Below are positions 4,577 through 22,801 of a stretch of 64,000 bases of DNA, in pieces. The notes beneath the pieces are model-generated. The model was not told the DNA's origin and ran no database searches. It was given only the letters and a program-made list of their open reading frames with translations. The stretch comes from a virus (lineage: Duplodnaviria > Caudoviricetes). A program made the translations under genes and the position numbers. The DNA lies in IMG/VR virus record IMGVR_UViG_3300032030_002018. The stretch is one strand, 5' to 3'. Each line of letters begins with the position of its first letter. Within the stretch, counting starts at the first letter, position 1.

Positions 4577-4604
4577 ATTTTTAAGAATATTTTTTCTAAA
4601 AAAA

Positions 4605-4916
4605 GTGGGAAATATATATTTGATTAGGGAAAATAATGAATCGAGCAATTATAAAATTGGCTCAACAAGACATAATGACATATCAAGGAGATTAAAAGGA
4701 TTACAAACAGGTAATCCAAATGAATTGATGTTAGTTAAGTCATTTAGTACAAATGAACAGTTTAAATTGGAGCATATGTTACATAGACATTATAAATATA
4801 AAAGAGAAAATGGAGAATGGTTTATATTAAATGAAGATGATGTCAAACATTTTGATGACGTATGCAAAAAATATCAAAGAGTAATTGATTCTTTGAAAAA
4901 TAATCCTTTTTGGTAA
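4605..4916 (+). CDS. GIY-YIG / T5orf172-type nuclease
   Basis: IYLIRE..YKIGST..RLKGLQTGNP..LEHMLHRHY..NGEWF; GTG at 4605 is the likelier start (track start 4542). Confidence 0.85.
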   Translation: MGNIYLIRENNESSNYKIGSTRHNDISRRLKGLQTGNPNELMLVKSFSTNEQFKLEHMLHRHYKYKRENGEWFILNEDDVKHFDDVCKKYQRVIDSLKNNPFW

Positions 4917-4924
4917 TTTGGTTA

Positions 4925-4932
4925 TATTTATA
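4925..4932 (+). promoter_or_regulatory. Candidate phage late promoter TATTTATA
   Basis: Recurrent motif 13 nt before the 4946 ATG. Confidence 0.55.
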
Positions 4933-4945
4933 TTAAAAAAAAGTT

Positions 4946-5215
4946 ATGATATATCAATTAAATGAAAATAAGTTAAGAAAAGTAATTAACAGTTCAATTA
5001 AACAGGTTTTAAATGAAAGCATTAACCCAGATTTATTGAAATCAATAGAAAACATTATGATTTGTAGTCAAGATGCTTATAAATTGGCGCAAAAAGACAA
5101 TATTGATGTATGGAAAGGACAGATTGCACGTCTACTTAAAGACATCAGGTTTTATCTTGATAAAATTGACTCTAAATTTTCTGGCATATCACAATCGATT
5201 GAAAGTGAATATTAA
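4946..5215 (+). CDS. Small head-type protein with LNE..LR.VI..SI..VLNE leader
   Basis: MIYQLNENKLRKVINSSIKQVLNES; own promoter and terminator. Confidence 0.75.
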   Translation: MIYQLNENKLRKVINSSIKQVLNESINPDLLKSIENIMICSQDAYKLAQKDNIDVWKGQIARLLKDIRFYLDKIDSKFSGISQSIESEY

Positions 5216-5256
5216 AAAAACACACAGTCAAGTCATCATTGACTGTGTGTTTTTTT
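5214..5256. terminator. Bidirectional intrinsic terminator
   Basis: aaaaaaaCACACAGTCA-agtcatcat-TGACTGTGTGttttttt between convergent genes. Confidence 0.85.
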
Positions 5257-5273
5257 CTTTCATTAATTTATTT

Positions 5274-6131
5274 TTAGTAGTTTGTTATCAGTACCTCGTC
5301 ACTTTTAGACACTTTGTCTTTAGTGTGATAATTGCAATTGCTATATGTATAATCAAGGTGATTCACGTTGTATTTTTCAGACCATTCAATCAATATATCA
5401 TTAGCCTTTCCTTTGCTTTCCAATACATTGGATAATGCGAATTTTATATGATTGTCATTTAATCTATCTAGAATTGACAGTAATGACTTCTCCTCATTCT
5501 CATTCCAACCGTCCCTTTCATTATAAGACGCACAGGTAATTAAATACGGAGGGTCACAATATATAAAATCATTGTATGACAGTTTGTCTATTTTTATTTC
5601 CTTGAAATCATAGTTTGTAAATATGATATTCTTTTCCGTAATGGCTTTATGGAAGTTTATCAAGTTTCCTTTCATCCTGTCAGTAAACATACTCCTGTCC
5701 TTTCCAAACGGCATATTATATTCACCTTTTGAATTAAACCTAATCTGATTGTTGAATGAATAACATATCAATACATATAATAAGATACTCTTAAATTTAT
5801 CATTGTTATGTGTGGCGTTATAATCATTCCTTAATTTCAAGAAACCTTCACTGTTGGTTTTTGACAAATCATATTTATTTATAACATCATTTATATCACT
5901 TATTAAATCATCTACATTCTCAAATCCTTGAAACATTTTATATATATTAATGACTTCACTGGAAAAATCATTTGCTATGATTCTATCAGCGTCAACATTG
6001 ACAGCGACATTGCCGCCACCTGTAAATAAATCAACAAATGTTCCAATATCTTTCGGAAACAACGGTAGTATTTGACTCAATAACTTGAATTTACCACCTG
6101 TATAATTCATTGGAGATTTAACAAAATCCAT
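5274..6131 (-). CDS. DNA adenine methyltransferase, D12/Dam family
   Basis: SPMNYTGGK, FVDLFTGGGNV, RFNSKGEYNMPFG, YCDPPY, EVLITNY. Confidence 0.93.
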   Translation of the reverse strand: MDFVKSPMNYTGGKFKLLSQILPLFPKDIGTFVDLFTGGGNVAVNVDADRIIANDFSSEVINIYKMFQGFENVDDLISDINDVINKYDLSKTNSEGFLKLRNDYNATHNNDKFKSILLYVLICYSFNNQIRFNSKGEYNMPFGKDRSMFTDRMKGNLINFHKAITEKNIIFTNYDFKEIKIDKLSYNDFIYCDPPYLITCASYNERDGWNENEEKSLLSILDRLNDNHIKFALSNVLESKGKANDILIEWSEKYNVNHLDYTYSNCNYHTKDKVSKSDEVLITNY

Positions 6132-6147
6132 AAAATACTTTTAAAAT

Positions 6148-6519
6148 CTAATGTTCTTTTTTTCTTTCCTTAATTAATCTCTTTTGCAACTCCTCAGCAA
6201 TCACATCACCGTGACAGGGTAATGGTTTACAGAAACATTGTAGATAAACATCCTCTCCGCTCTTATAGGCTTCATATATCCTGTCAAAAGCGTCTGTAAG
6301 TTCCTTGTTCTTACCATAAGACTGCTCAAAGTATAACCTGTAAGCCTCTATTGCTTCCTCTCTTGTCTTAAAAGACAATTTGGCAAGGCTCGTCTTGACA
6401 CCATTGTGAGTAAATGGGTTGCCCAAAGGATTTCCATCCTTCGACCTTCCTATGTAAAAATTGTTTTTCTCATTTGTATGGTCTTCATTCTTAACATTAT
6501 AGACAATAATACGCCCCAT
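6148..6519 (-). CDS. DUF4326-family protein
   Basis: YIGR..LGNPF..REEAIEAY..LQCFCKPLPCHGDVIA. Confidence 0.85.
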   Translation of the reverse strand: MGRIIVYNVKNEDHTNEKNNFYIGRSKDGNPLGNPFTHNGVKTSLAKLSFKTREEAIEAYRLYFEQSYGKNKELTDAFDRIYEAYKSGEDVYLQCFCKPLPCHGDVIAEELQKRLIKERKKEH

Positions 6520-6531
6520 TATAAAAATGTT

Positions 6532-6720
6532 TTACATAATTCCACTTTCATTAATATCATCACGTATTTTTTCCAGACCTTTTAGCAAATCACAAAGCTG
6601 GTCCTTACGGACATTCACTTCTTCCTCGTAATGCCCGTGCAAATCATAAAACACAATAGTGTAACCACCTTTGTCTGATTTTACTAATGTAATCCCTTCA
6701 GTATCTACTATATATTCCAT
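6532..6720 (-). CDS. Hypothetical protein
   Basis: 62 aa, operon spacing. Confidence 0.65.
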   Translation of the reverse strand: MEYIVDTEGITLVKSDKGGYTIVFYDLHGHYEEEVNVRKDQLCDLLKGLEKIRDDINESGIM

Positions 6721-6777
6721 TACTCAACATATTTTCTTTATAATTACGTCGTAATAATGGAAAAGTTAAAATATACC

Positions 6778-6912
6778 TCAATATATTTCTCTTCTTATAA
6801 TCCTCCTACTAACAAGACCATTCTTCTTTGGTGGAACTTTCGTTACAGTTTTTGCCTTTGGTATAGAATTACTACTTACATTCTGTGTCTTGTTCTTACA
6901 GCTACATCCCAT
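6778..6912 (-). CDS. Small basic CxC protein (44 aa), below ORF-track cutoff
   Basis: MGCSCKNKTQNVSSNSIPKAKTVTKVPPKKNGLVSRRIIRREIY*; preceded by TATTTATA at 6934-6941. Confidence 0.7.
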   Translation of the reverse strand: MGCSCKNKTQNVSSNSIPKAKTVTKVPPKKNGLVSRRIIRREIY

Positions 6913-6956
6913 TTTTTCCTATATATTTTTCTTTATAAATATATCATCGTCCAAAA

Positions 6957-7751
6957 TTATTCACTTGGTTCAGAACATATTGTAAGTTCTTCAATCCTAT
7001 CCCTGGACATTTTGCAATATTCCTCACTTATGTCTATGCCTATATAATTGCGTTTCATATCAATACAAACAAGTGCCGTTGTACCGCTTCCAATAAACGG
7101 GTCTAATACTATGTCACCTTTATTTGTCCAAGTCTTTATGTGGTCTAATACAACATCATATGGATAGACAGCAGGATGACCGCTCTTGTTTTGAGCAACA
7201 GCGAAATCCCATACATTACCTTTTACTTTCTTCTCACTGACATTATAGTAAACCTTTCTCCTACCACTCTCGCCTCCAATCATCTTGGCTGTTGACTTGT
7301 ACAATTTTCCTGCATTCTTGCAATCAACCATAATTGGATTGAATGTCTTCGGTTTTCCCTTGCTGAATACCATCATATAGTCAAATGTATCAGTGTATCT
7401 GGGTTGTGCGACAACAGGACAAGGATTCGTCTTGTTCCAAATCATAACATCATTTACATTAAAACCAATTTCATTGAAATACAAAGCCTGCTTAAAACTG
7501 GTCAATGTCTTACTGCCTTTCATTGTTCTGTCATTTACAATCCATACAACAACACCACCTGGTTTTATTACCCTATATAATTCATCAGCCACTCCTTTGA
7601 ACACATCGAAATTCCAAGGATTATCAGGATTATTATAAGTCCTGAGATTATCATATGGCGGACTTGTGATGACCATATCAACACTTTCATCGTCAATATC
7701 CTTCATCACAAGCCTCGCATCACCACAGTATATGTTATTCAATTCAAGCAT
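6957..7751 (-). CDS. DNA methyltransferase, N4-cytosine/N6-adenine beta class
   Basis: ITSPPY before HPAVYP and DPFIGSGTT; SPPY favours m4C; likely start MLELNNIYCGD (track start 7784). Confidence 0.92.
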   Translation of the reverse strand: MLELNNIYCGDARLVMKDIDDESVDMVITSPPYDNLRTYNNPDNPWNFDVFKGVADELYRVIKPGGVVVWIVNDRTMKGSKTLTSFKQALYFNEIGFNVNDVMIWNKTNPCPVVAQPRYTDTFDYMMVFSKGKPKTFNPIMVDCKNAGKLYKSTAKMIGGESGRRKVYYNVSEKKVKGNVWDFAVAQNKSGHPAVYPYDVVLDHIKTWTNKGDIVLDPFIGSGTTALVCIDMKRNYIGIDISEEYCKMSRDRIEELTICSEPSE

Positions 7752-8211
7752 TCTTATTCTTTCTTTTGGATTCTTTTTCAGCAAGTTTATGCTCCTTCTC
7801 CTCTTCCTCTATCTCTTCCATTACAATCTTAGCCGTTTCAATAAGGTTGATATATTTATCGCCATACTTACTACGCATCCTTAATAACTCACCATATTGG
7901 GAAGAATCTACATTTATCTTGTCCTTCTCACTGTCATACGATACATTGGATAAAGCACCTTCAAGAATCATATTCTTGTATTCATCACTCAGCCTGTCAA
8001 AGGCTTCCTCATATAGGAACATATGAATTGTGTCTTGTTCCTTTGTCAAAAACTCTGTTGTAGCACTTGCCTTACTTACCTTTGCAATAGTGTTAGCCTT
8101 TGTAAGTGACATAACCTTTAGCCTAATTCCGACCTGTGCTAATCCAGTATTCTCAAAAATAAGGTCTGCCAACTTTACATTGGCTTCATCAGTCTTAAAA
8201 ATCTTTGCCAT
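7744..8211 (-). CDS. Hypothetical phage protein
   Basis: 155 aa, directly downstream of a sigmaA-type promoter. Confidence 0.8.
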   Translation of the reverse strand: MAKIFKTDEANVKLADLIFENTGLAQVGIRLKVMSLTKANTIAKVSKASATTEFLTKEQDTIHMFLYEEAFDRLSDEYKNMILEGALSNVSYDSEKDKINVDSSQYGELLRMRSKYGDKYINLIETAKIVMEEIEEEEKEHKLAEKESKRKNKNA

Positions 8212-8231
8212 AACTTCTAATATTTTTTTAA

Positions 8232-8263
8232 CAAATATATATTTATTTTAGTAGAAAACCAAA
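8232..8263 (-). promoter_or_regulatory. Bacteroidota sigmaA-type promoter
   Basis: Minus strand TTTG-N20-TATATTTG. Confidence 0.7.
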
Positions 8264-8282
8264 TAAATCATTAGGAAAAATT

Positions 8283-8969
8283 ATGTCTAAACCAAAGAAA
8301 ATGCTGTATCACATAATCTTGACAAGTTTTGGAAAACAAAAGGAAGATTTATGTTGGGCGGCTTCAGAGAAAAGCATATACAAGAAATTGGACAAGATAA
8401 CAGAACAATGCGGTAAAGTTGTATTCCCATTGAAATATGTAAACACAAAAGCAATAAAACCAGCTGATTTTGAATTACTTGTAATTAAATATAAGGATGA
8501 TGCCAATCAAGTTTCAGAGGTTAAAGATGATTATGGGAGATATGTGAAATACGAATCCAACAGTCCTAATTGGGAAATCATAGACAGAAGACCCTATGAA
8601 AAAGAGGAAACATTCTGGGTATATGGATACAATCCAATACATCAAAGGAAAAACTTTATGTGGATATATAACGAATTTGTCAAGAAGGAGTCTGAAAACA
8701 AATATAACTTCAAAGAGGTTCTTATATTGAAGAATAAGGTTATATTTCACAATGCAGGACATATAGATATGGTCTTATGCAAATGCAAGGAAGACGCAAT
8801 AAGAATGTACAACCTGATTGAGAAAATGGCAACAGAAGACGGAATAAAATATATCGTCTTCAACGGTGAGATAAAACAAGGAAAAATGAGATATAACTGG
8901 TATAGGAAACTAATGGACTTTACAGGTTGGAATCTACGTAAAGTTACAAGATATTGTCTTAGACCATAA
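8283..8969 (+). CDS. Hypothetical protein
   Basis: 228 aa ORF with phage-typical composition. Confidence 0.8.
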   Translation: MSKPKKMLYHIILTSFGKQKEDLCWAASEKSIYKKLDKITEQCGKVVFPLKYVNTKAIKPADFELLVIKYKDDANQVSEVKDDYGRYVKYESNSPNWEIIDRRPYEKEETFWVYGYNPIHQRKNFMWIYNEFVKKESENKYNFKEVLILKNKVIFHNAGHIDMVLCKCKEDAIRMYNLIEKMATEDGIKYIVFNGEIKQGKMRYNWYRKLMDFTGWNLRKVTRYCLRP

Positions 8970-12333: not shown

Positions 12334-12657
12334 ATGAAAAATTTAGATGAATTAATTAAGGAATATTGTTCATTGAATAATCTGAAATACCGTGAGTTTA
12401 AGGAAAAATGCCTTGAAACTGGATTTAACATAATAAGATTCGGAAATTCTCCAATAGAGAAATTCAGGATGGAAAAAATGATTGAGAGAAATGATACAGA
12501 AGAAAAACCTAGAACAGTTGTTAAAGTCGAGGAAAGAACAGAAGACAACAAAGATATCGGAAAAAAAGAAGAAGAAATCAAACGAGTTGAAAAAGATGAT
12601 GTCAAGGTAAAAGAAGATAACAAACCAAAAAAGAGAGTCAGAATACTGAAAAAATAA
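12334..12657 (+). CDS. Hypothetical charged protein
   Basis: 107 aa, TAATG overlap with sbcC-like gene; variant promoter at 12284-12315. Confidence 0.7.
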   Translation: MKNLDELIKEYCSLNNLKYREFKEKCLETGFNIIRFGNSPIEKFRMEKMIERNDTEEKPRTVVKVEERTEDNKDIGKKEEEIKRVEKDDVKVKEDNKPKKRVRILKK

Positions 12658-15038
12658 TGAAGAAACTAAAAGATAAATCAAAGGCAATAATATGTTGGAA
12701 TGTATCTCCATATGACTATTCCAACGACAAGGTGCGTGATATCATATCAATAGCTTCATCAAAATACGGATTACCAAAATCATCAATCAAGGTGATACCT
12801 CAATTCACAACACAAGACAAGGATGGAAAGGATGTCACAATAACAAGCGATATAACGTCAAATATACAAAATCCTGATTTCCAAAAGAAGTTGTTTAGAG
12901 AATACATTGATATTAATAAAATTGAGGGGTATGATTGGGATTTGATATGCGGTATTGACGATGATATCAATAACAATATAAATTATTCTGTATACGATAA
13001 ATACAGGAGATATAAGATTAAATGGGTAAAATGGAGTAATTTCCTTTCATATGGAAGTGATAATTTCCTTGATTTCTCCAATATGAGAGGTCTTGTATTG
13101 CTTAATGGTAGAAATCAAAGTGGAAAGACAACACTCGCATTAGACTTGATTAGATTCCTGTTATTCGGCAGTATAACGAAATACCAAACACAGGACAAGA
13201 TATTCAACAAGTTTATACCAGAGGCAACATCAGTAACTGTTGAGGGGTGTATATGCGTTGACGATGAGGATTATGTCATTAAAAGGACGTTATCGAGACC
13301 TTCTCTTAATAAGAGAACAGCAAAGAGCAGGGTGAGTCAGAAAGTTGAGTATTTCAAGATTGTAGGTGATAATGTTGAGGAACTTGAAGACTACACTGAA
13401 AATAAACAGGAAGATTCAACGAAAAATACAAATAAGAGAATAAAGGAAGTTATTGGTATTGAAGACGATTTCGACCTTGTTATGTCTGTAACAGACGCAT
13501 CACTTGATTCATTGATAGAAAAGAAAGATACTGAGAGAGGTAGATTATTCTCACGATGGATTGGGTTATTACCAATAGAAGAAAAGGGTGTCATCGCAAG
13601 AGAGAAATTCAATCAATCAATAAAACCTTCATTGTTGTCAAACAAATACAACATAGAAGACCTGAATAACGAAATAACAACAATAGCAACCAACATTAAT
13701 GATATTCTTGAACGTAACAGTGTAATACATAATAAGATAAACAATATAACAAAGGAAATCAATAAATTAGAAAGGAAGAAGGAAAAACTTCTTTTATCAA
13801 AACAAAACATTGATAATGAATTACTTAAAATTGATATTACAACTCTTAACAGGTCTATTGAAGATGTAACGGCATTAGGCAAGAGAAAGAAAGAGGAATT
13901 GGATGCTGTTGTAAAAGAGATTGATTATATTGGCGATATTGATTTCTCAATTGAAGACTATGACAATATCATATCAAAGACAAATGATATGAATGTCGAT
14001 AAGAGTGTTATGGCAGAGAAATACAAGTTGTTGTCTATGAGTATCAATGAATTGAAGAACAGCGAATACTGTCCTACTTGTGGAAGGAAATTCGATAATA
14101 TTGACAACAGTAAGAAAATATCAGAAATAGAGGCTGAATTGGAAACAATCAAAAATAAAGGAATTGAGTTAAAGAAACAGATTGATTCAAATAATTCCCT
14201 GATTGAGTCTATGAAAGTAAAGAGGGAACAGTATTACAGGAAAGGAAACCTTACAGTTCAAAAGTCCGCGTATGAACTTAATATTGAACAACTTAGGAAC
14301 AGACTGATTGAACTAAGGAATACCCTAAAAGAATACAATAAGAATAGTGACGCTATTGATGCCAACAATAAACTTGATATTGAAATTGCAAATGTTGATA
14401 TATTATTAAACAACAAAAGAGAAGAAAAAACACTCAATGAAAAATATATAATAAACAATGAGTCCACAATATCATTGTATAAAGAAGAAATATCAAGGAG
14501 GGAAGATATTATCAATGAAATAAACAAGGAGGTAGAATTAGTCAAGAACTGGAAAATTTACCTTGATATGGTTGGAAAGAACGGTATATCTAAGATGGTT
14601 TTAAGAAAGACATTGCCAATTATAAACGCAAGGTTATCACAACTTCTTAATGATGTATGCGACTTTGATGTTGAGGTAAGGATGAATGACAAGAATGAGG
14701 TGTCGTTCAATATAATCAAGGATGGTGTTCTTTCTGATTTAAGTGGTGGTAGTGGATTTGAGAAAACAGCGTCTTCATTGGCTTTAAGAGCTGTGTTGGC
14801 TGATATATCCACAATACCAAAATCGTCATTCATACTGTTTGATGAGATACTTGGAAGAGTTGATGAGGAGAATTACGATAATATGCATAACTTATTCAAC
14901 AAGATACTCACAGGATATGATTTCATAATATCAGTGAACCATATAAAGGAATGTAAGGACTGGTTCAATAAGATTATAAATGTTACAAAGAAAGACAACA
15001 TATCGGTTGTTGAGATAGATAATAGAGAAAATGTTTAA
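12657..15038 (+). CDS. SbcC/Rad50-like recombination ATPase (T4 gp46-like)
   Basis: WSNFLSYG, Walker A GRNQSGKT, coiled coils, zinc hook CPTC, signature SGFE, Walker B LFDE, H-loop VNH. Confidence 0.93.
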   Translation: MKKLKDKSKAIICWNVSPYDYSNDKVRDIISIASSKYGLPKSSIKVIPQFTTQDKDGKDVTITSDITSNIQNPDFQKKLFREYIDINKIEGYDWDLICGIDDDINNNINYSVYDKYRRYKIKWVKWSNFLSYGSDNFLDFSNMRGLVLLNGRNQSGKTTLALDLIRFLLFGSITKYQTQDKIFNKFIPEATSVTVEGCICVDDEDYVIKRTLSRPSLNKRTAKSRVSQKVEYFKIVGDNVEELEDYTENKQEDSTKNTNKRIKEVIGIEDDFDLVMSVTDASLDSLIEKKDTERGRLFSRWIGLLPIEEKGVIAREKFNQSIKPSLLSNKYNIEDLNNEITTIATNINDILERNSVIHNKINNITKEINKLERKKEKLLLSKQNIDNELLKIDITTLNRSIEDVTALGKRKKEELDAVVKEIDYIGDIDFSIEDYDNIISKTNDMNVDKSVMAEKYKLLSMSINELKNSEYCPTCGRKFDNIDNSKKISEIEAELETIKNKGIELKKQIDSNNSLIESMKVKREQYYRKGNLTVQKSAYELNIEQLRNRLIELRNTLKEYNKNSDAIDANNKLDIEIANVDILLNNKREEKTLNEKYIINNESTISLYKEEISRREDIINEINKEVELVKNWKIYLDMVGKNGISKMVLRKTLPIINARLSQLLNDVCDFDVEVRMNDKNEVSFNIIKDGVLSDLSGGSGFEKTASSLALRAVLADISTIPKSSFILFDEILGRVDEENYDNMHNLFNKILTGYDFIISVNHIKECKDWFNKIINVTKKDNISVVEIDNRENV

Positions 15039-15046
15039 CCTTTTAA

Positions 15047-15769
15047 ATGAGCGATTATGTAAATGATTTCAATGAATGTGTAAAATATTATTTCGAAGAA
15101 TTGAAGAAATACAAGCCGTTGAAACGAGAGGAAGAGAGAGAATTTATAATAAAGGCTAAAAATGGGGATATTGAAGCAAGGAATAAAGTGATATCATCGA
15201 ACCTGAGGTTTGTTTTTGAAATGGCTAAAAGATACAAGGGTTCAGGAATATCAATAGACGAACTTATTGCAGAAGGCAATCTTGGAATGATGAAAGCAAT
15301 TGATAAGTTCAATGTTGACTATGATATAAAATTCTACTCATATGCCGTATGGTGGATTAAGCAGTATATGAAATCAGCCATAAAGAAGAATATGGAGAAA
15401 AGCAACATTGAAGGCAATGAAGACGAAATTGCTCACAGTATCATAAGCAATACAATTCCTGATGATGAAGACGAAAAAGTCAACAAGTCAGAAACCATAA
15501 TGTCAAATGAAGAAGACGAATACAACGCTGAATTAGAAGCGAACAAAAAGGTTGTTGTTGAGAATTTATTGGTGAAACTTGATGATAGAGAAAGAGTCAT
15601 AATAGAAAATTATTATGGAATAAACGGCAAAAAAGAAAAAAACCTTGAAGAAATAGGAGTTATGTTAGACATAAGCAAAGAGAGGGTAAGACAAATAAAA
15701 ATGTCTTCAATAAAGAAAATGAGATGCGAGATACTCACTATGGACAAGGCTGAATTTATGTTTACCTGA
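15047..15769 (+). CDS. Phage sigma70-family RNA polymerase sigma factor (RpoD/RpoS-like)
   Basis: SNLRFV..AKRY, ELIAEGNLGMMKAIDKF, KFYSYAVWWIKQ (region 2); NLEEIG..ISKERVRQI (region 4). Confidence 0.95.
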   Translation: MSDYVNDFNECVKYYFEELKKYKPLKREEEREFIIKAKNGDIEARNKVISSNLRFVFEMAKRYKGSGISIDELIAEGNLGMMKAIDKFNVDYDIKFYSYAVWWIKQYMKSAIKKNMEKSNIEGNEDEIAHSIISNTIPDDEDEKVNKSETIMSNEEDEYNAELEANKKVVVENLLVKLDDRERVIIENYYGINGKKEKNLEEIGVMLDISKERVRQIKMSSIKKMRCEILTMDKAEFMFT

Positions 15770-15777
15770 TATTTATA
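15768..15777 (+). promoter_or_regulatory. Candidate phage late promoter GATATTTATA
   Basis: Recurrent motif 14 nt before the 15792 ATG. Confidence 0.6.
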
Positions 15778-15791
15778 TTTAAAATAATCAT

Positions 15792-16157
15792 ATGGAAGAG
15801 AAAAAGAAACCTGGAAGACCAAAAAAGAATGCTGACAAGAAGAAAACAGTAAAAGTGTCAGCGAAAAAGAATGTGGTAGTAAAAGAAACAAATGTTGAAC
15901 CAATATCACTTTCAACAAGCGAAGTTGAAGAAATAAAGAATGAATCCACAGGAAAAACACTTGAAACAAATCCTGTATATAATTCATTAGTATCAAAAGA
16001 AGAAGAAACAGTTAAAGTTGAGAGTGAAGTAAATGAAATATCTGGGGAAAATAAAACTGAGCCAGATAAAAAAGAAGAAATAAATGAAATAAGCCATAAA
16101 AACAAGAGAGTGTATTTCACTTCTGTTTGGAATGGCATTGAAATGGATTCATATTAA
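15792..16157 (+). CDS. Low-complexity K/E-rich protein
   Basis: 121 aa; KKPGRPKK N-terminus, acidic middle, C-terminal VWNGIEMD. Confidence 0.75.
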   Translation: MEEKKKPGRPKKNADKKKTVKVSAKKNVVVKETNVEPISLSTSEVEEIKNESTGKTLETNPVYNSLVSKEEETVKVESEVNEISGENKTEPDKKEEINEISHKNKRVYFTSVWNGIEMDSY

Positions 16158-16160
16158 AAA

Positions 16161-17459
16161 ATGGCAATCAAGAAGAAAAACAATATCGACTTTACAAGGA
16201 AAATGTTAGAAAGAATAAGGTTAGTCAATGAAGTGAAATTCACTAACAGTCCTTTACTAACAGAGGAAAATGGTTTCGTTATAAAGAAAAACGACACTAA
16301 ATTTGGTAATATACGACAATCACAGGAAGAACAGTTGCGACAAACCATTGGAGACGTTGAACTTGATGATGATGGTGTTGTGTTTTTCCCTGATAACAGC
16401 AATATCGTGCTTAACGGTTATATCAAGGGTATGAATGTTAAGTTCCAATTTAAATATAACGACCAGTCAGGTGATGGATGTTATATAACTGGCGCAGATG
16501 TGCAAATGACAGACTCAAATACAAAGACATTGCAAAAGATTAGGGCGGCTTATGAGAATTGGAAAACATCATTAGACCAAGACGCTACGATTATCAGAGA
16601 CCTTGAAAACGCTGTTAAAAATAATAATAACAACGTTTCAGAATCATCAATTGATAATAGACGAATTATTAAAGAGGAATTTAGGAGGAGACACAGTAAA
16701 GCGCATTCAATTAAAGAAGATGTTATGGCAAGATTTTACAACATCACTACAAACAGAAATAAACCTGTTTTAGTTGAAGGTGTTACTATAGACCGAATAA
16801 TAAAGAAACACGGAGATAAAGGACTTGTAATTGTTAGTGCCAACAGAAGCGATATGGATAGTGATTATAATGACAATAAAACCAGGGAATTAATTCACGA
16901 TATAAAAGATTCAGGATATTCGTATTTACCAGTATATGGCGGCTACCGTGGAACTGATGGAGTTGAAGACGATTACGAACCTTCATTTATAATATTCAAT
17001 TACGACAATAATGGAGATGAAAGAGATTTTGATGAATTACGTGATTTTGCTTTATATTGCTGTGGTAAATTCAACCAAAATTCAGTATTGATTAAAGCAC
17101 CGTCAACGCCTCCAATATATGTTAACAAAGAAGGAAACAAGGTGAATTCTAAAGAAAGCGATGAAGTTATAAAGAATGACCCAAAACAGCAATTTTTTTC
17201 TTCTCTAAAATCAAAAGAAGATGTTGACAACGAAATAAGAGAAAAACTTATGGGAAAGTACAAGACATTTTGCCATATAAGTAATATACCTGTAACTAAA
17301 AGCGGATTTGAGAAATTTTGCAAAGAAAACCTTACTAATATTGATAGTATCGGTAAAAGATGGACTTATGACATACAGTTTGAATGTTACGTCAATCCAA
17401 TGCCTTGCCAATTATCAGAAAGAATGAGGAGAAAAGGCGAGATTATGATTTGGGATTAA
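16161..17459 (+). CDS. Head-type protein fused to a putative SAM-lyase (T3 SAMase-like) domain
   Basis: N-half has repeated L/I/V-x-E sites; C-half has VIVSANRS..N..GGYR..E..FNQNSVL, resembling T3 SAMase motifs. Confidence 0.65.
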   Translation: MAIKKKNNIDFTRKMLERIRLVNEVKFTNSPLLTEENGFVIKKNDTKFGNIRQSQEEQLRQTIGDVELDDDGVVFFPDNSNIVLNGYIKGMNVKFQFKYNDQSGDGCYITGADVQMTDSNTKTLQKIRAAYENWKTSLDQDATIIRDLENAVKNNNNNVSESSIDNRRIIKEEFRRRHSKAHSIKEDVMARFYNITTNRNKPVLVEGVTIDRIIKKHGDKGLVIVSANRSDMDSDYNDNKTRELIHDIKDSGYSYLPVYGGYRGTDGVEDDYEPSFIIFNYDNNGDERDFDELRDFALYCCGKFNQNSVLIKAPSTPPIYVNKEGNKVNSKESDEVIKNDPKQQFFSSLKSKEDVDNEIREKLMGKYKTFCHISNIPVTKSGFEKFCKENLTNIDSIGKRWTYDIQFECYVNPMPCQLSERMRRKGEIMIWD

Positions 17460-17728
17460 ACATTATAATCTGTTGGTTTTCTTATATTTATAACCAAATT
17501 ATCAAACTTAACGATAATTACATTATCGGACGGTACGAATTCGTTACCGTCCTTTTTTTCATTTAATCTGTAAAACAAATCCTCATCTATTTTTGAAAAT
17601 GATTCATTGTCAACAGTTATTGATAATGTGTTCCCACTTGAATAAACCCCATCTGCCCTAAGTTTTTCTGAAACAAGTTTTCCAAGTTCATATATATTAT
17701 AAGCTGTCAATTTTAAATCGCTTTTCAT
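17456..17728 (-). CDS. Hypothetical protein
   Basis: 90 aa, operon. Confidence 0.7.
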   Translation of the reverse strand: MKSDLKLTAYNIYELGKLVSEKLRADGVYSSGNTLSITVDNESFSKIDEDLFYRLNEKKDGNEFVPSDNVIIVKFDNLVINIRKPTDYNV

Positions 17729-17731
17729 TTC

Positions 17732-17962
17732 TTAAAACATCCTTAATATCTTATCTATAAAATACCTTGTTCTCTCCCTTAAAGACAGTTTCACCTTTTT
17801 TCTTCCACTTAACACATCATCAATGTCGTTACCAAGTTCTCCCCTCAACCTTTCAGCATACATATTCCTGGTTGATTCCAACATCTTCTTGGATATGTTT
17901 CTGTCACTCTTTAAAAGTTCAAGTTCAACTCCAACTGTTGCTCCTTCTTGTAATTCCTCCAT
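17732..17962 (-). CDS. Hypothetical protein
   Basis: 76 aa, overlaps the 3' end of the methyltransferase gene. Confidence 0.65.
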   Translation of the reverse strand: MEELQEGATVGVELELLKSDRNISKKMLESTRNMYAERLRGELGNDIDDVLSGRKKVKLSLRERTRYFIDKILRMF

Positions 17963-18762
17963 AATGTCTCTATCTTTTCCGTTGAATTGTTTTTAGTGTC
18001 ATATACGTGAGATGTAAATTGATATTTCTCAAATCCGTTGTCTGTCAGTATTTTGTATCTGTCACAATCATATCCGCTTATCAAAATCTTCGCCTTGCTG
18101 TTTATTACAGCATCAAGAAACTCATCCTGTTTGTCACCATCCATATCAACAGCGTATCTTGTACTGGTTCTTGTACTCCAATCATAAGGCGGGTCGCAAT
18201 AGAAAAACACTTTCTCATCATCATATTTCTTTATCAACTCAACAGCATCACGGTTCAATACAATCGTCTTTGACAACCTGTCGTGAAGTTCTGGTAACCT
18301 TTCAACTGCTGAAAGAAAATCTGACACACTCTTTGACATACCCCTTCTAACAGAATATCCATTTATAGAAATACCGCCTATAGAATTACGGCTAGTTCTG
18401 TTCACATAGAAATACATAAAAGCACGGTCAACAATAGATATACTGTCATCATCTTTCCTTAATACATTTATATATTCTTTCCTTAAGTCCTCACTATAAT
18501 AAGTCAATTCACATTTTTTTCTGAATTCATCAAATAACTCACTATCATTCAATACTTTATAAAAAGAATACACATTTTTGTACAAATCATTGTATATTTC
18601 TATTTCTGGTATATATTCCATACCAAGACCTACGCCATAAGAACCCCCGAATGGTTCAATATATGTTGTATAACTACCTTTGTCAGGAAATAGTTCATAT
18701 ATCTTGTTTCTCATCACATTCTTGCCTCCGAAATATTTAATAGGTGCTAATAGTTTTCTCAT
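17911..18762 (-). CDS. DNA adenine methyltransferase, D12/Dam family
   Basis: PIKYFGGK, YIEPFGGS, YNDL, FYCDPPY, ETLWRNY. Confidence 0.93.
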   Translation of the reverse strand: MRKLLAPIKYFGGKNVMRNKIYELFPDKGSYTTYIEPFGGSYGVGLGMEYIPEIEIYNDLYKNVYSFYKVLNDSELFDEFRKKCELTYYSEDLRKEYINVLRKDDDSISIVDRAFMYFYVNRTSRNSIGGISINGYSVRRGMSKSVSDFLSAVERLPELHDRLSKTIVLNRDAVELIKKYDDEKVFFYCDPPYDWSTRTSTRYAVDMDGDKQDEFLDAVINSKAKILISGYDCDRYKILTDNGFEKYQFTSHVYDTKNNSTEKIETLWRNYKKEQQLELNLNF

Positions 18763-19112
18763 TCCCTACCCTCTATATTGTTTTGTATTGTGTCAATTAG
18801 ATATACAGATGAAGCTGTTGCTACCATATCCAACATTGTTATGTACACAACATTAAGTTCCCCTCCATACAACATATGAAAAGGTGTTACATTTGTTCCG
18901 AAAATATTGTCAATAATTGATAATCCAAAACCAACCCAGGTTGGCGTGCAGAACATACAGGAAAGCATTTCCTCAAAATGCGGATGTATCTTCGGCGCAT
19001 ATTTCCTTATTTTCTCAAATATATGGAATGGACCGTTGGAATACACAAGCATAAATGAAATTCCATACGCGACAAGTATATATACAATAAGCCTAACCCA
19101 CATTGTCAACAA
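18759..19112 (-). CDS. DUF1360-like membrane protein
   Basis: GPFHIFEKIR..LSCMFCTPTWVG plus TM segments. Confidence 0.7.
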   Translation of the reverse strand: MLTMWVRLIVYILVAYGISFMLVYSNGPFHIFEKIRKYAPKIHPHFEEMLSCMFCTPTWVGFGLSIIDNIFGTNVTPFHMLYGGELNVVYITMLDMVATASSVYLIDTIQNNIEGRE

Positions 19113-19527
19113 CCTCTACTGTATTATTTACTTCAACAGATTTCTTCTTCCTTGGTTTCTTTGCTTTCTTCTTTGGCTCATCAATAACGAATTGAAGATT
19201 GTATAAACTTTCAATCGGTGTGGTTGAGAACAACTCCTTCAATTCCTCAATCTTAACCTTCAGAAGCTCTATTTTCAAAGCAACATTCTTGTTTGTTGAA
19301 ATCGTGTCGTTAATCAAATCAAACACTTCTTCAAGTGTGACACCCTGTTCTGAATCACCATAGTAGAATATAAAACCATCATCAGACTTCGCAGGCTTAA
19401 CCATACCATTATCAGAAGGATACACTTTCCACCCCTGTGGGAACTTAACCTTTACAATCAAAGCCTTTCCATAATATTCAATTGACTGAAAATACTCTGA
19501 TATCTTTAAAATCTCATCCTGTAACAT
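19093..19527 (-). CDS. Hypothetical protein
   Basis: 144 aa with C-terminal coiled coil and basic tail. Confidence 0.75.
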   Translation of the reverse strand: MLQDEILKISEYFQSIEYYGKALIVKVKFPQGWKVYPSDNGMVKPAKSDDGFIFYYGDSEQGVTLEEVFDLINDTISTNKNVALKIELLKVKIEELKELFSTTPIESLYNLQFVIDEPKKKAKKPRKKKSVEVNNTVEVVDNVG

Positions 19528-19535
19528 AGTGTGAT

Positions 19536-19721
19536 TTAAATAATTAAAACAGTTATAATATATGATATGGCAAGACCAATTGACAATGTTGTCAATAAAC
19601 TTGTATCTACCTTACCCTCACGCAACCTTATCACCTTAATAAAGTTAAACAACCTGTTCAATAAGAACAATATACAGAAAATGAAAACAAAAGTTTTCAA
19701 ACCAATTAAAAACGTAAACAT
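19536..19721 (-). CDS. Small 2-TM membrane protein
   Basis: 61 aa, two hydrophobic helices. Confidence 0.6.
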   Translation of the reverse strand: MFTFLIGLKTFVFIFCILFLLNRLFNFIKVIRLREGKVDTSLLTTLSIGLAISYIITVLII

Positions 19722-19790
19722 TTTTATTAAAAAATAGTGTTAAAATGTTTTAAATAAAGAATTAACAAAGGTTCAAAAAAATAATCTAAT

Positions 19791-19820
19791 AAAAAAACCA
19801 CAAATTTCAATTTGTGGTTT
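19791..19820 (-). terminator. Intrinsic terminator
   Basis: AAACCACAAA/TTTGTGGTTT stem with U-tract on minus strand, immediately after the 19826 stop. Confidence 0.8.
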
Positions 19821-19825
19821 GTTCA

Positions 19826-20218
19826 CTACTGTTGCATTTTGTACTTGTTGTATTCGTCTTCAAGTTCTTTGATACTCATACAGGGTTTTGTAATTATTTC
19901 ACCTGTATCGTAGTTTTTGAGTACCATCACAGAACCGTCTCCATTCGGATAATATATACCGATATTATTGTTTCTCCCTAATTTATCATTGCGATATTTC
20001 AAAAATCTCTCACCTTGCAAGTATTTCTTACCGTGCGGTGAATCAAAAGGTATTTCATTTGATGGTTCATATTTTCCAAAACCTTCTCTACCAATACTAT
20101 AAGCCTTATTCGCAGCTCTGTCAGCCAAGTCTGCCGATATTTCATTCAATACTCTATTTACAGATTTATTCACAATCCTGTGCAAGTCACTCTCTGTTAA
20201 TCTAATTCTCGTTTTCAT
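19826..20218 (-). CDS. Small head-type protein with LTESDLHRIV leader
   Basis: MKTRIRLTESDLHRIVNKSVNRVLNE; GATATTTATA at 20242-20251; own terminator. Confidence 0.8.
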   Translation of the reverse strand: MKTRIRLTESDLHRIVNKSVNRVLNEISADLADRAANKAYSIGREGFGKYEPSNEIPFDSPHGKKYLQGERFLKYRNDKLGRNNNIGIYYPNGDGSVMVLKNYDTGEIITKPCMSIKELEDEYNKYKMQQ

Positions 20219-20259
20219 ATTATATTTTCTTATTTTTTCTTTATAAATATCACGATATT

Positions 20260-20291
20260 TTTGCTTTTGTCAAAATATTTGTGTATATTTG
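20260..20291 (+). promoter_or_regulatory. Bacteroidota sigmaA-type promoter
   Basis: TTTG-N20-TATATTTG upstream of 20311. Confidence 0.7.
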
Positions 20292-20310
20292 TTAAAAAAA
20301 TAATTATGCT

Positions 20311-20919
20311 ATGTGTGTTCTTGGGTATATATACAGTAATAAGAATATAAAGGGTATAAACAAATATATATCGTTAATAAACGACATATCTGATTATAAT
20401 GGCGATAAGCCGTTATTGATAATAGGCTTGGAGAATGCAAGAAAATATTCTGCAAAATTCTCAATATTGAACAAAAGAATAAGTCAAAATGTATTTTGGA
20501 CATTCGATAAAAGCGAGAACCGGGAAGATTATGATAACGACATAAATAAATTTCACAAATTTGTCATATCCAACATATCAAGCCAAATTAAATATTATTA
20601 TGTTAATTTCATTGGTATAAGTTTGAAGAGGATAAAGCATTTCATTAATATGATGAATGACAATACGATGAAATACGCGTATATCAATAACAGTATGGCT
20701 TATATAATGTATGGTAGTGATGTGTTTGGGATATCATTTGATATATTGGATTATTGTGGGATATCAAGGGATAAAATAATAGATAAAATCATAAAGAACA
20801 AAAAGATAAGGATACAGTTTGAAAACAAGGAAATAAGGGATAAAATCAAATATGAATATAATGGAAATAATAAAATAATACCATATTTAATATCGCAAAT
20901 AAATGAATACAGAAATTGA
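20311..20919 (+). CDS. Hypothetical protein
   Basis: 202 aa downstream of promoter. Confidence 0.75.
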   Translation: MCVLGYIYSNKNIKGINKYISLINDISDYNGDKPLLIIGLENARKYSAKFSILNKRISQNVFWTFDKSENREDYDNDINKFHKFVISNISSQIKYYYVNFIGISLKRIKHFINMMNDNTMKYAYINNSMAYIMYGSDVFGISFDILDYCGISRDKIIDKIIKNKKIRIQFENKEIRDKIKYEYNGNNKIIPYLISQINEYRN

Positions 20920-21199
20920 AATACTGATAAGAAGGCTATTAAAATCTTTGGTGAAAAATATAAAATCAAAATATCCATACGTTGAAACAAACGAAGAAGA
21001 TATAACGTTTTTTTTAGAAAGGACAAGAAGGAATTATTCAGTTACAATGGATTGTCACGATTTTTTCAATACATTTTTCTGTCCAATAAAAGATATTGAA
21101 TTTATTGAAAGTTTCTCAGGAAATCCATTTTTAAAGATGATTCTAAAATTGTTGGCTGTTGACAACCCAAAAAAAATAGAAGATTTAGGATTGTATTAA
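20903..21199 (+). CDS. Hypothetical protein
   Basis: 98 aa, followed by terminator. Confidence 0.7.
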   Translation: MNTEIEILIRRLLKSLVKNIKSKYPYVETNEEDITFFLERTRRNYSVTMDCHDFFNTFFCPIKDIEFIESFSGNPFLKMILKLLAVDNPKKIEDLGLY

Positions 21200-21206
21200 T
21201 ACAACA

Positions 21207-21241
21207 AATGAGGAGCCGATTTGACTCCTCATTCTCTTTTT
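21207..21241. terminator. Bidirectional terminator
   Basis: AATGAGGAG-ccgatttga-CTCCTCATT between convergent genes. Confidence 0.8.
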
Positions 21242-22002
21242 CACCTTTCAAGGTTAAGATGTTCGGTAAGTTTGTATTTTTCAGAAGGATTGTAATTCAT
21301 AAGTGACTTAACCCTGTCAAGTTGTTCGTTTATTACCTTTGAACCTAATCTCTTCTGTATGTCTGGTTTTTCTAAATCGTGCCATTCAACAAAATACTTT
21401 GTCTTATCAGCATCCTCCATTATAAACCTACACCCTTCGTACTTATACATATCTGGTACCTTGGAAAGCATATGGTTTTCAGACAGGAATTTCAAATGCT
21501 TGAACCTTATTCTGTCAATGTTTCTTGATTCTCCGTACATAGTCTTCTTTCCATAAGACTTCTTGTCATAATGCTGCGATACAAGACCTTGGAATTGCAT
21601 ATCCTTCTTTATCTTATTTGAATCAACAGCGTGCTTCTTGAAATAAGGTGAAATACCGAAATCAGCGTTTCCAAACTCATCGTTTTTGTGGTTTTTCTTT
21701 GCCAATGCAGATGTCCACCCTTCTGCTTGCGCTTGAAGACGCTCAGTGTCTGGGTCATTGTCATAACGTATGTCAGACATACCCTGATTCTCTTCTGGTG
21801 TTACAGGACCAGTTTTCTTGTCGTCACCATCCTTAATTCCTTTGTAAACGGACTTGACTTCTTTCTCAATATCAGAATAAGCCTTGCCGTTTATATCCTT
21901 GTTCTTTTCGTTGCCAACAACTGGTTTGAATTCATTCTTCTCGTTAATGAATCTCCTTAATTCTCCAACCTTGAAAGTTCTTTCCATTGTAATTATTGCC
22001 AT
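21241..22002 (-). CDS. Putative head core/internal protein
   Basis: 253 aa, charged; ELRRFINE, FLSE, VINEQLDRVKSLMNY, KLTE sites. Confidence 0.6.
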   Translation of the reverse strand: MAIITMERTFKVGELRRFINEKNEFKPVVGNEKNKDINGKAYSDIEKEVKSVYKGIKDGDDKKTGPVTPEENQGMSDIRYDNDPDTERLQAQAEGWTSALAKKNHKNDEFGNADFGISPYFKKHAVDSNKIKKDMQFQGLVSQHYDKKSYGKKTMYGESRNIDRIRFKHLKFLSENHMLSKVPDMYKYEGCRFIMEDADKTKYFVEWHDLEKPDIQKRLGSKVINEQLDRVKSLMNYNPSEKYKLTEHLNLER

Positions 22003-22176
22003 TTAATATAGTGGATATTGAGATAAGTACAACCCTCTAAGTAATTGTTCAAACCTCAATTTTGTTATTTTATTCTTGTCGATTTTCTCTTTACCAATTT
22101 CTTCTTTGAGCATATTGTCAACCTCAATTACACTTTTGATGTTCTCATTCTGCTCTTGGTTAGCATAATCTATCAT
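22003..22176 (-). CDS. Hypothetical protein (57 aa), below ORF-track cutoff
   Basis: MIDYANQEQNENIKSVIEVDNMLKEEIGKEKIDKNKITKLRFEQLLRGLYLSQYPLY*; ATGA overlap upstream, stop abuts next ATG. Confidence 0.7.
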   Translation of the reverse strand: MIDYANQEQNENIKSVIEVDNMLKEEIGKEKIDKNKITKLRFEQLLRGLYLSQYPLY

Positions 22177-22457
22177 TTCTTTCTCTTGTTAACCTCATCA
22201 GTTCCTTCCTCATCAGCGTGCTTTGTGGTCATATTCTTCCTTCCCATAGCAGGAGCGTAGAAACCACGTGTAATTGGCTTTCCCTTGCTCATAGGAGCAT
22301 CATAGTAAGGATAACTGCCATCATTACCAAGACCACAGGTATTTGTAGCACCTCCGCCACCCATAGCACCTTCTCCTTCTTCTCTAATTATCCTCCTGAC
22401 ACTTTCCATTACCATACGGTGAATGTCACTCTCTGTTAATTTAATTCTTCTTTTCAT
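22173..22457 (-). CDS. Small head-type protein with LTESDIHRMV leader
   Basis: MKRRIKLTESDIHRMVMESVRRIIREE followed by a Gly-rich segment. Confidence 0.8.
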   Translation of the reverse strand: MKRRIKLTESDIHRMVMESVRRIIREEGEGAMGGGGATNTCGLGNDGSYPYYDAPMSKGKPITRGFYAPAMGRKNMTTKHADEEGTDEVNKRKK

Positions 22458-22801
22458 TTGAAATAATCATATAAACGATGCATCTTATCTTCAAAGTTCT
22501 TTGAGCATACGGTGTATTTAAGATGATGAATTGATTTCTTCTTCTTTGATTCAGCATCATATCTCTCATCGAACCCTTCTTTCTTTATGACAATACCCCT
22601 ATCAAGCATCCTGTTAAGTATGTCATTCCTACTTATGCCCCTTCCTTTAAGATAATCTGTTGTATCAGCATTGATAGGATTTGACAAAAGTTCCCTTAGG
22701 AATTTCTTGACCTCTGTTTGGAACTTGAAATAAGTCATCTCATCCTTGGAAGAAGACAGAACACCAATCTTATCCTCAGATATGTATATTCTCCTACCCA
22801 T
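22454..22801 (-). CDS. Hypothetical late protein
   Basis: 115 aa, MGRRIYISE leader variant. Confidence 0.75.
   Translation of the reverse strand: MGRRIYISEDKIGVLSSSKDEMTYFKFQTEVKKFLRELLSNPINADTTDYLKGRGISRNDILNRMLDRGIVIKKEGFDERYDAESKKKKSIHHLKYTVCSKNFEDKMHRLYDYFK

Follow-up and report, generated by a model that had tools for sequence, protein, structure and literature searches.

Why would a phage that encodes its own synthetase for S-adenosylmethionine (SAM), together with several DNA methyltransferases, also carry what looks like an enzyme that destroys SAM? The question is raised by a 432-amino-acid open reading frame (ORF) in the IMG/VR virus record IMGVR_UViG_3300032030_002018 (Duplodnaviria; Caudoviricetes), which represents a T4-related jumbo phage of the gut whose host is probably a member of the Bacteroidota. 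The window, by which we mean the whole stretch of 64,000 nucleotides that was analysed, covers positions 26,645 to 90,644 of this 334,687-bp record, estimated to be 96% complete. The known role of SAM lyases is that of early enzymes in the cytoplasm that act against restriction and the bacteriophage exclusion (BREX) system. A first-pass annotation of the ORF had suggested another use, in which the prohead protease could release a T3-like SAM lyase inside the capsid for injection with the DNA, and the logic of that reading is probably right. We divide the ORF into an N-terminal module, from a protein family that we call c1, and a C-terminal SAM-lyase module. Our favoured reading, to which we give about an even chance, is that the two form a capsid-loaded SAM lyase that is injected with the DNA against host defences.

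The C-terminal module and its substrate

The ORF and the strings that had been quoted from it were all found in the translation (GLVIVSANRS-x6-N at residues 222–237, VYGGYR at 258–263, DYEPSF at 271–276, and CGKFNQNSVLI at 301–311), and the proposed T3-SAMase-like domain with an active-site Glu and Gln was borne out by family, profile, and fold comparisons. Pfam PF23780 (S-AdoMet_lyase) matched residues 223–326 with an E value of 1.6e-10 and 41.4 bits (cut-off 28), and the genome search agreed. About 100 homologues were found, nearly all with PF23780 and most of them 240–305 residues long, matching residues ~165–432 of the ORF. Conservation counts for close homologues are given over 96 sequences, and the same 96 were the input to the AlphaFold 2 (AF2) model of residues 165–432, which had a predicted local distance difference test score (pLDDT) of 86. 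T3 SAMase (7ock_L) was the top match of this model in an exhaustive structural comparison (Z 11.4, root-mean-square deviation 3.5, 139 residues; runner-up Z 6.7), and Foldseek ranks 1–7 were all either T3 SAMase or Svi3-3, the two proteins with which the first-pass annotation had proposed a comparison. By sequence, T3 SAMase was the sole solved protein found with the lyase-family profile, and hhalign aligned the family to T3 gp0.3 with an E value of 1.3e-5. The best PHROG match (phrog_2226) is named "SAM-dependent methyltransferase", which misdescribes a SAM-destroying enzyme; the name was probably inherited from the T3 entry, since RefSeq uses the same product name for the T3 SAMase gene 0.3 (L020:901–1359).

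The residues Gly56, Tyr58, Glu69, and Gln104 of Svi3-3 and Glu68 of T3 SAMase are conserved and bind the substrate (Guo et al., PMC7877911). Their counterparts in the ORF (Table 1) are retained almost throughout the close homologues: G260 and E273 in 95 of the 96 each, Y262 in 92, and Q306 in every one. The distance of 11 residues between Tyr and Glu is the same in our protein, T3 SAMase, and Svi3-3. We consider it very probable that the module is a SAM-lyase-fold enzyme with an intact active site, and probable that SAM is its substrate. It would then cleave SAM to methylthioadenosine and homoserine lactone by means of the G-x-Y motif, Glu273, and Gln306.

Of the solved proteins, T3 gp0.3 (7OCK, 8BB1) is the best relative in both fold and sequence. 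The motifs S-A-x-R-S-x6-N, G-x-Y-x10-E, and Q-D/N-S/C are common to the two proteins, and the presumed conversion of SAM to methylthioadenosine and homoserine lactone and a role against restriction and BREX may be as well. However, the T3 enzyme is an early, cytoplasmic protein of 152 residues, whereas ours has 432 and lies behind a phage-specific promoter motif. Apart from the fused N-terminal protein, there are three additions relative to T3 SAMase: a 38-residue segment preceding the domain (residues 169–206, hereafter the pre-segment), a helical insertion of ~70 residues, and a conserved C-terminal tail, for which the pLDDT is low (58–64). Svi3-3 (6ZM9) has in common with our module the PII-like alpha/beta fold and the Gly, Tyr, Glu, and Gln residues, which orient SAM for a unimolecular lyase reaction; it differs in being a weaker structural match (Z 6.2) and in being trimeric and minimal, without extensions.

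The SAM-AMP lyases (9GAB, AcrIIIB4) belong to the same superfamily and have the same fold and catalytic Glu and Gln (PMC12255297), and the substrate of our enzyme could be SAM-AMP, although T3 is by far the nearer relative in structure and in sequence. Such an enzyme, packaged or not, would degrade the signal of type III-B CRISPR systems and spare SAM, so that any conflict with the phage's SAM synthetase and methyltransferases would disappear. AcrIIIB4 is likewise of gut-phage origin, has an extra N-terminal domain, and cleaves SAM-AMP and not SAM (PMC12255297); SAM-AMP signalling is used by Bacteroides fragilis, a point of interest given the probable Bacteroidota host. On the other side, the fold matches T3 SAM lyase with Z 11.4 as against 4.8 for the SAM-AMP lyase of C. 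botulinum, the family profile finds T3 SAMase and not 9gab even at E values up to 10, and the loop from the Tyr to the catalytic Glu has the length found in SAM lyases. AcrIIIB4 was identified through BLAST similarity to the C. botulinum enzyme, a similarity that the lyase family studied here does not have. We therefore regard a SAM-AMP lyase as improbable.

Address tags on homologues of the lyase

The case for packaging comes chiefly from the relatives of the lyase. The first-pass annotation had pointed to the sequence VLVE|G immediately before the domain, and an [LIV]-x-E site occurs at this position (E206|G207) in 88 of 96 lyase homologues. More distant PF23780 homologues of 160–180 residues (E values 1e-13 to 1e-22) came from uncultured viral contigs and from cultured T4-like cyanophages such as P-TIM68, S-H34, S-N03, and S-CREM2. 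These minimal homologues, of cyanophage and marine origin, retain the G-x-Y, E, and KYxQDSVLIK motifs and start with MKTY[SA][QE]FIQE|AS, for example MKTYSEFIQE|ASLNRI. T4 IPII and IPIII start with MKTYQEFIAE|A, a type of start that serves as a capsid-targeting sequence and is removed by gp21 (PMC5694885). The tag of the minimal homologues, once aligned with our protein, terminates exactly at VLVE206|G.

One of these homologues has been seen in virions. Mass spectrometry of CsCl-purified S-CREM2 virions detected ORF6 with 19 unique peptides and 26% coverage, and the study suggested that ORF6 is carried into the host along with the DNA (PMC10665884). We found PF23780 in S-CREM2 ORF6 with an E value of 2e-19, and hhalign related it to the lyase family with 94.5% probability. 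It thus belongs to the same Pfam family and the same branch of T4-like phages as our protein, carries an L-x-E that immediately precedes the domain's first helix, and has SbcCD and a Dam methylase nearby. It differs in that its N-terminus bears a short tag and no fused protein and that its C-terminus is extended by a long stretch of low complexity; its host is a cyanobacterium, and its identity to our protein is ~24% over the domain.

A second kind of tag was found closer to our protein. Between 17 (by hidden Markov model, HMM) and 22 (by pattern) of the 96 close homologues begin with a leader of ~26 residues, MKRRIRLTESDLHRIVN.SVKRVL.E, which we call the LTESDL leader. This leader, which ends in L-x-E, also heads about two dozen unrelated ORFs of this phage genome, with a few further matches at internal positions. 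The leader HMM matched ~30 ORFs in the genome, with a near-identical leader (MKRRIRLTESDLHRIVN.SVKRVL[NRK]E) that is mostly N-terminal and followed by unrelated sequence; two of these ORFs lie in the window (Table 1). Some matches fall inside longer ORFs, for example at residues 222–247 of a 362-residue frame, and such internal matches could be polyprotein joints or misplaced start codons.

Since both the T4-type tags and the LTESDL leaders on homologues end at such sites, tags that terminate in a gp21-type site are the norm for this family branch, which is found in T4-like phages and whose putatively removable N-terminal tags end in [LIV]-x-E before the first helix of the domain. The T4 proteins IPI, IPII, and IPIII and Alt offer a model for such cargo: made late, they are guided into the prohead by a tag at the N-terminus, are shortened by cleavage after [LI]-x-E, and travel into the host with the DNA; IPI* acts against restriction. 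The tag of the minimal lyase homologues is near-identical to theirs (MKTYSEFIQE versus MKTYQEFIAE). Our protein differs in lacking the 10-residue tag; a propeptide, if there is one, would comprise 24 or 206 residues, and its cargo is a cofactor-removing enzyme rather than a nuclease inhibitor.

The machinery for such processing is encoded in the genome. The phage has a gp23-type capsid protein (E = 6e-64), a gp20-type portal (E = 1e-87), and, as the first-pass annotation had presupposed, a T4 gp21-type prohead protease (Peptidase_S77, E = 3e-15). An intein-like insertion interrupts the protease gene (Intein_splicing, E = 3.9e-6; Hint_2, E = 0.005; both below threshold). We also looked in the major capsid protein for the Glu at which the T4 gp23 propeptide is cleaved and rejected that assignment, as the N-termini are homologous but the Glu is out of register; a nearby LISE|A is a candidate site only.

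The N-terminal module

The first-pass annotation had taken the region in front of the lyase domain for a head-protein leader, and this part of it did not survive. The N-terminal 160 residues are a full copy of a conserved, folded, stand-alone protein family. An exhaustive search with residues 1–168 returned 113 representatives, nearly all of them stand-alone proteins of ~140–200 residues, and the AF2 model of c1 had a pLDDT of 87, rising to ~95 over residues 40–160. For this fold, Foldseek returned no match at E values up to 0.001, the Atlas look-up likewise gave nothing above background, and the best hit of the structural comparison (Z 6.6, to BPI/Aha1-like half-barrels) was unconvincing. Synteny was evaluated for the closer c1 sequences at 31 IMG/VR loci, many of them on contigs of 200–410 kb. 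The gene order SbcC (~790 residues), sigma factor (~240 residues), small protein, c1, and two conserved genes was found at all 31 related loci.

In a search for paralogues within the phage's own genome, the fused copy was the only c1. Because no other copy was found, the idea that residues 1–170 are a leader common to other proteins of the phage was rejected; descent of the c1 N-terminal helix from the LTESDL leader was likewise rejected at the HMM level (best E value 0.46). A single c1 protein of 72 matched PHROG families named "head maturation protease"; there was no similarity to the protease of this phage, and the result was not used. The fusion itself is kept in a sister lineage at 69% identity with identical neighbours, including the Dam gene, and we conclude that it is real and maintained.

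The module does hold one conserved candidate site. In 69 of 72 c1 proteins, [LIVM]-x-E is present at the column of LVNE24, compared with 16% of background windows, and the site lies directly before the disordered linker at residues 26–32.

The upstream motif

The claim that the ORF follows a late-type motif held in part. The motif, GATATTTATA, occurs 5 times in the window as against 0.67 expected and 22 times in the genome, where ~13 of the 22 copies lie 14–32 nucleotides 5' of an ORF start; the motif is usually 14–45 nucleotides ahead of start codons. A loose form lies 30 nucleotides before the prohead protease gene and is also found ahead of about ten leader genes and of the genes for several very large proteins; the form upstream of the leader ORFs is [AGT]ATATTTAT[AT]. 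At the locus in question the motif overlaps the sigma-factor stop codon, a placement kept in 21 of 30 relatives. This distribution, as read from the sequence, would fit a late class. The part that did not stand is the direct link to the lyase ORF, whose start is 393 nucleotides downstream of the motif: the motif instead fronts a 121-residue ORF. The stop codon of that ORF is 4 nucleotides from the start of the lyase ORF, and the two are probably co-transcribed. Among the large proteins encoded on the minus strand at 24–58 kb, hardly any could be annotated with PHROG.

SAM metabolism of the phage

The phage encodes a SAM synthetase, MetK (S-AdoMet_synt_C, E = 7e-52), 54 kb from the lyase gene, and between six and eight DNA methyltransferases. 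The three methyltransferases reported for the window by the first-pass annotation, one of them about 450 nucleotides from the ORF, are all present (D12, N6_N4, and D12, the last at 452 nucleotides). Two leader-tagged genes adjoin metK in this genome (98969–99472 and 99747–100229). The closest lyase homologues themselves adjoin a phage MetK, often with more lyase-fold paralogues, among them DUF3293 genes and a 984-residue protein carrying several domains of this kind. In one relative (L005:3898–8528) the order is MetK, a DUF3293 protein, a SAM-lyase homologue, and a 530-residue protein with a weak lyase domain, with NAPRTase, Macro, and Tad2-like genes in the vicinity; in another (L056, ~4600–8792) MetK is followed by a single protein of 984 residues with DUF3293 and S-AdoMet_lyase domains. 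From these arrangements, DUF3293 looks like a diverged SAM-lyase fold.

These associations raise the possibility that the protein acts chiefly by binding the host or phage SAM synthetase, with catalysis secondary. T3 SAMase also inhibits the host MetK through heteropolymers, and binding of MetK is documented for this enzyme, which among solved proteins is the closest relative (7ock, 8bb1; PMC8406200). The strongly conserved C-terminal tail, which has no assigned role, would leave room for such an interaction, as would the neighbourhood of MetK in the closest homologues. Against this, the catalytic residues are near-invariant over the 96 homologues, which favours catalysis, and in the present genome the two genes are far apart. 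We consider a mainly MetK-binding function very improbable.

If a fixed dose of lyase were sequestered in the head and the phage later resynthesized SAM, the lyase, MetK, and the methyltransferases could be reconciled.

Weighing a packaged against a cytoplasmic enzyme

The principal competitor to a capsid-loaded lyase is a cytoplasmic SAM lyase that is never packaged and acts in mid or late infection, with the [LIV]-x-E positions serving structural purposes. It might shut off host methylation, block superinfecting phages or SAM-dependent defences, or tune the SAM pool together with MetK. The following observations support it, weigh against packaging, or do both. The gene belongs to the SbcC–sigma operon of c1, which is no head module and lies ~175 kb from the head genes. 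The protein carries no recognisable address tag: its N-terminus (MAIKKKNNIDFTRKML...) lacks a T4-type tag such as MKTYQEFIAE, and the leader HMM matched neither this protein nor any c1 protein. The pre-segment is strongly conserved and modelled as ordered (pLDDT 73–85), which is also compatible with a structural role in the enzyme rather than with a propeptide that is discarded, and in many homologues the Glu of the E206 site moves by one position. The region before the domain is not "studded" with [LIV]-x-E sites, as had been described. The quoted sites are all there (besides LVNE and VLVE, LLTE at residues 32–35, IIKEE at 169–173, and SIKE at 183–186), but 6 sites in the N-terminal 207 residues amount to 2.9 per 100 residues against a genome mean of 1.86 (standard deviation 1.03), an ordinary density that ranks at the 85th percentile among proteins of the genome and is not above chance. 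The upstream motif is unlike the T4 late box in coding orientation. A tblastn search of 50,697 phage records with the full-length protein as query gave zero matches, which means that this collection holds no cultured close relative with proteomics. Lastly, the T3 enzyme is itself a cytoplasmic early protein (PMC8406200).

Four lines of evidence speak against an enzyme that stays in the cytoplasm. Tags across the branch, including true T4-type tags, end at the same site, and one homologue was detected in virions. The upstream motif is common to the protease gene and the leader genes. Moreover, an active cytoplasmic lyase would oppose the phage's own methyltransferases and MetK. Taking both sides together, we find the cytoplasmic enzyme rather unlikely and packaging of this protein plausible, with chances that are even or slightly better. 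Cleavage at E206 is a more tentative proposal, which we think somewhat less likely than not.

Under the favoured reading, the protein would be made from a phage-specific, probably late, promoter and would enter the prohead by means of the fused c1 module, the conserved pre-segment, or both. The gp21-type protease would trim it at E24 and/or E206, and the lyase would be ejected together with the DNA. SAM would drop at the first moment of infection, and SAM-dependent defences (type I and III restriction, BREX) would fail; the phage SAM synthetase would then restore SAM for the phage methyltransferases. For this protein we infer the packaging, cleavage, timing, and substrate, as well as the logic of depletion followed by restoration. 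In a bolder version, the pre-segment and c1 would keep the lyase inactive as well as addressing it to the prohead, a cut at E206 by the gp21-type protease in the capsid would activate it in the manner of a zymogen, so that activity would be confined to injected enzyme, host SAM would collapse at entry under a fixed dose of lyase, and MetK would refill SAM for the phage methyltransferases. We think this version unlikely; if true, it would make a timed strategy of depleting and then restoring the cofactor common to many T4-like phages, from the oceans to the gut.

Gene neighbourhood

The positions of all features are listed in Table 1. The lyase ORF is the final gene of a plus-strand run that comprises an SbcC-like ATPase, a sigma factor, the 121-residue protein, and the lyase ORF. 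The 121-residue protein had neither a Pfam nor a PHROG match, and a sequence match to the c17 cluster, whose slot it occupies, was not found. Its N-terminus is very basic and contains KPGRPKK (AT-hook-like); in relatives, this slot is likewise taken by a small protein with the same promoter-like motif upstream. The convergent D12 neighbour is also kept in the sister lineage, and a D12 or DNA adenine methylase gene is close to the lyase homologue in L008 and in S-CREM2.

The slot right after c1 varies among relatives, and in one of them (L023) a lyase gene is placed between sigma and c1. The c4, c13, and c6 clusters, which normally follow c1 in relatives, are inverted here (~21241–22801, minus strand), which suggests that the lyase fusion occupies a break point in synteny or a hot spot for insertions (17456–22801). 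One member of the lyase family was binned with Porphyromonadaceae. In protein P0103 (330 residues, on a 1.6-kb ENA contig), the N-terminus of an AAA/SMC-type ATPase is followed by the final 75 residues of the lyase family at 71% identity; this could be a recombinant, an insertion into a gene, or an assembly chimera. The gene immediately 5' of another lyase homologue, at L060:6001–7641, encodes 546 residues with a Cas12f1-like TNB domain (TnpB-type), and a Metallophos phosphoesterase lies 3' of that homologue.

Table 1. Positions of the two-module ORF, its candidate sites, and associated genes (window coordinates unless marked as genome)
Feature	Position	Strand	Basis or remark
Whole ORF, c1 module plus SAM-lyase module, 432 residues	16161..17459	+	ORF list, translation
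c1 module, residues 1–160 (N-terminal helix, disordered linker, alpha/beta domain)	16161..16640	+	Homology, AF2
LVNE, residues 21–24, candidate prohead-protease site of c1	16221..16232	+	Column conservation
Conserved pre-segment, residues 169–206 (...EDVM.RFY.I..N.NKPVLVE), ending in VLVE206	16665..16778	+	In nearly all 96 homologues
VLVE, residues 203–206, candidate cleavage site	16767..16778	+	Coil just before first helix of lyase domain
SAM-lyase module, residues 207–432	16779..17456	+	Pfam, AF2 model, fold comparison
G260-G261-Y262 (Svi3-3 G56/Y58, T3 G55/Y57)	16938..16946	+	Alignment
E273, key substrate-orienting Glu (Svi3-3 E69, T3 E68)	16977..16979	+	Role per PMC7877911
Q306-N307-S308 (Svi3-3 Q104-E105-S106, T3 Q94-D95-C96)	17076..17084	+	Q306 aligned directly to T3 Q94
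Family-specific insertion, mostly helical, residues ~330–397	17148..17351	+	Not in T3 SAMase
Last strand (RWTYDIQF) and strongly conserved C-terminal tail (E420, R424, E427)	17352..17456	+	
Promoter-like motif GATATTTATA	15768..15777	+	Overlaps sigma-factor stop codon, 15 nucleotides before 121-residue ORF
Basic 121-residue protein	15792..16157	+	Counterpart of relatives' c17 slot by position and length
SbcC-like ATPase	12657–15038	+	Conserved upstream operon gene
Sigma-70-family factor	15047–15769	+	Conserved upstream operon gene
SbcC and sigma pair together	12657..15769	+	Pfam/PHROG annotation, synteny
D12-class (Dam-like) DNA adenine methyltransferase	17911..18762	-	Convergent with lyase ORF, 452 nucleotides past its end
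D12 methyltransferase	5274–6131		In window
N6_N4 methyltransferase	6957–7784		In window
Leader-matching ORFs	19826–20218 and 22173–22457	-	Others elsewhere in genome
MetK	genome 97596–98750 (L009)	-	Outside window, 54 kb from lyase gene
Prohead protease gene	genome 221939–223093 (L003:874–2028)	+	Outside window, S77 match in two pieces

Implications for T4-like phages

The idea of a virion-borne SAM hydrolase is already published. To our knowledge, only one proteomics paper reports a member of the family inside virions, and it does so without a mechanism. New here are an address-and-cut site that is conserved family-wide, a jumbo-phage form in which a conserved protein is fused to the lyase, and an association with phage MetK. 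The comparison suggests a rule, namely that across T4-like phages the head-address tags of this lyase family end at one conserved protease site. If the rule holds, the phage would bring the means of cofactor depletion with it as a finished protein, ahead of any expression of its own genes, which would explain how the lyase coexists with many methyltransferases and a SAM synthetase. Packaged anti-defence cargo of uncultured gut jumbo phages would also become recognisable in their sequences.

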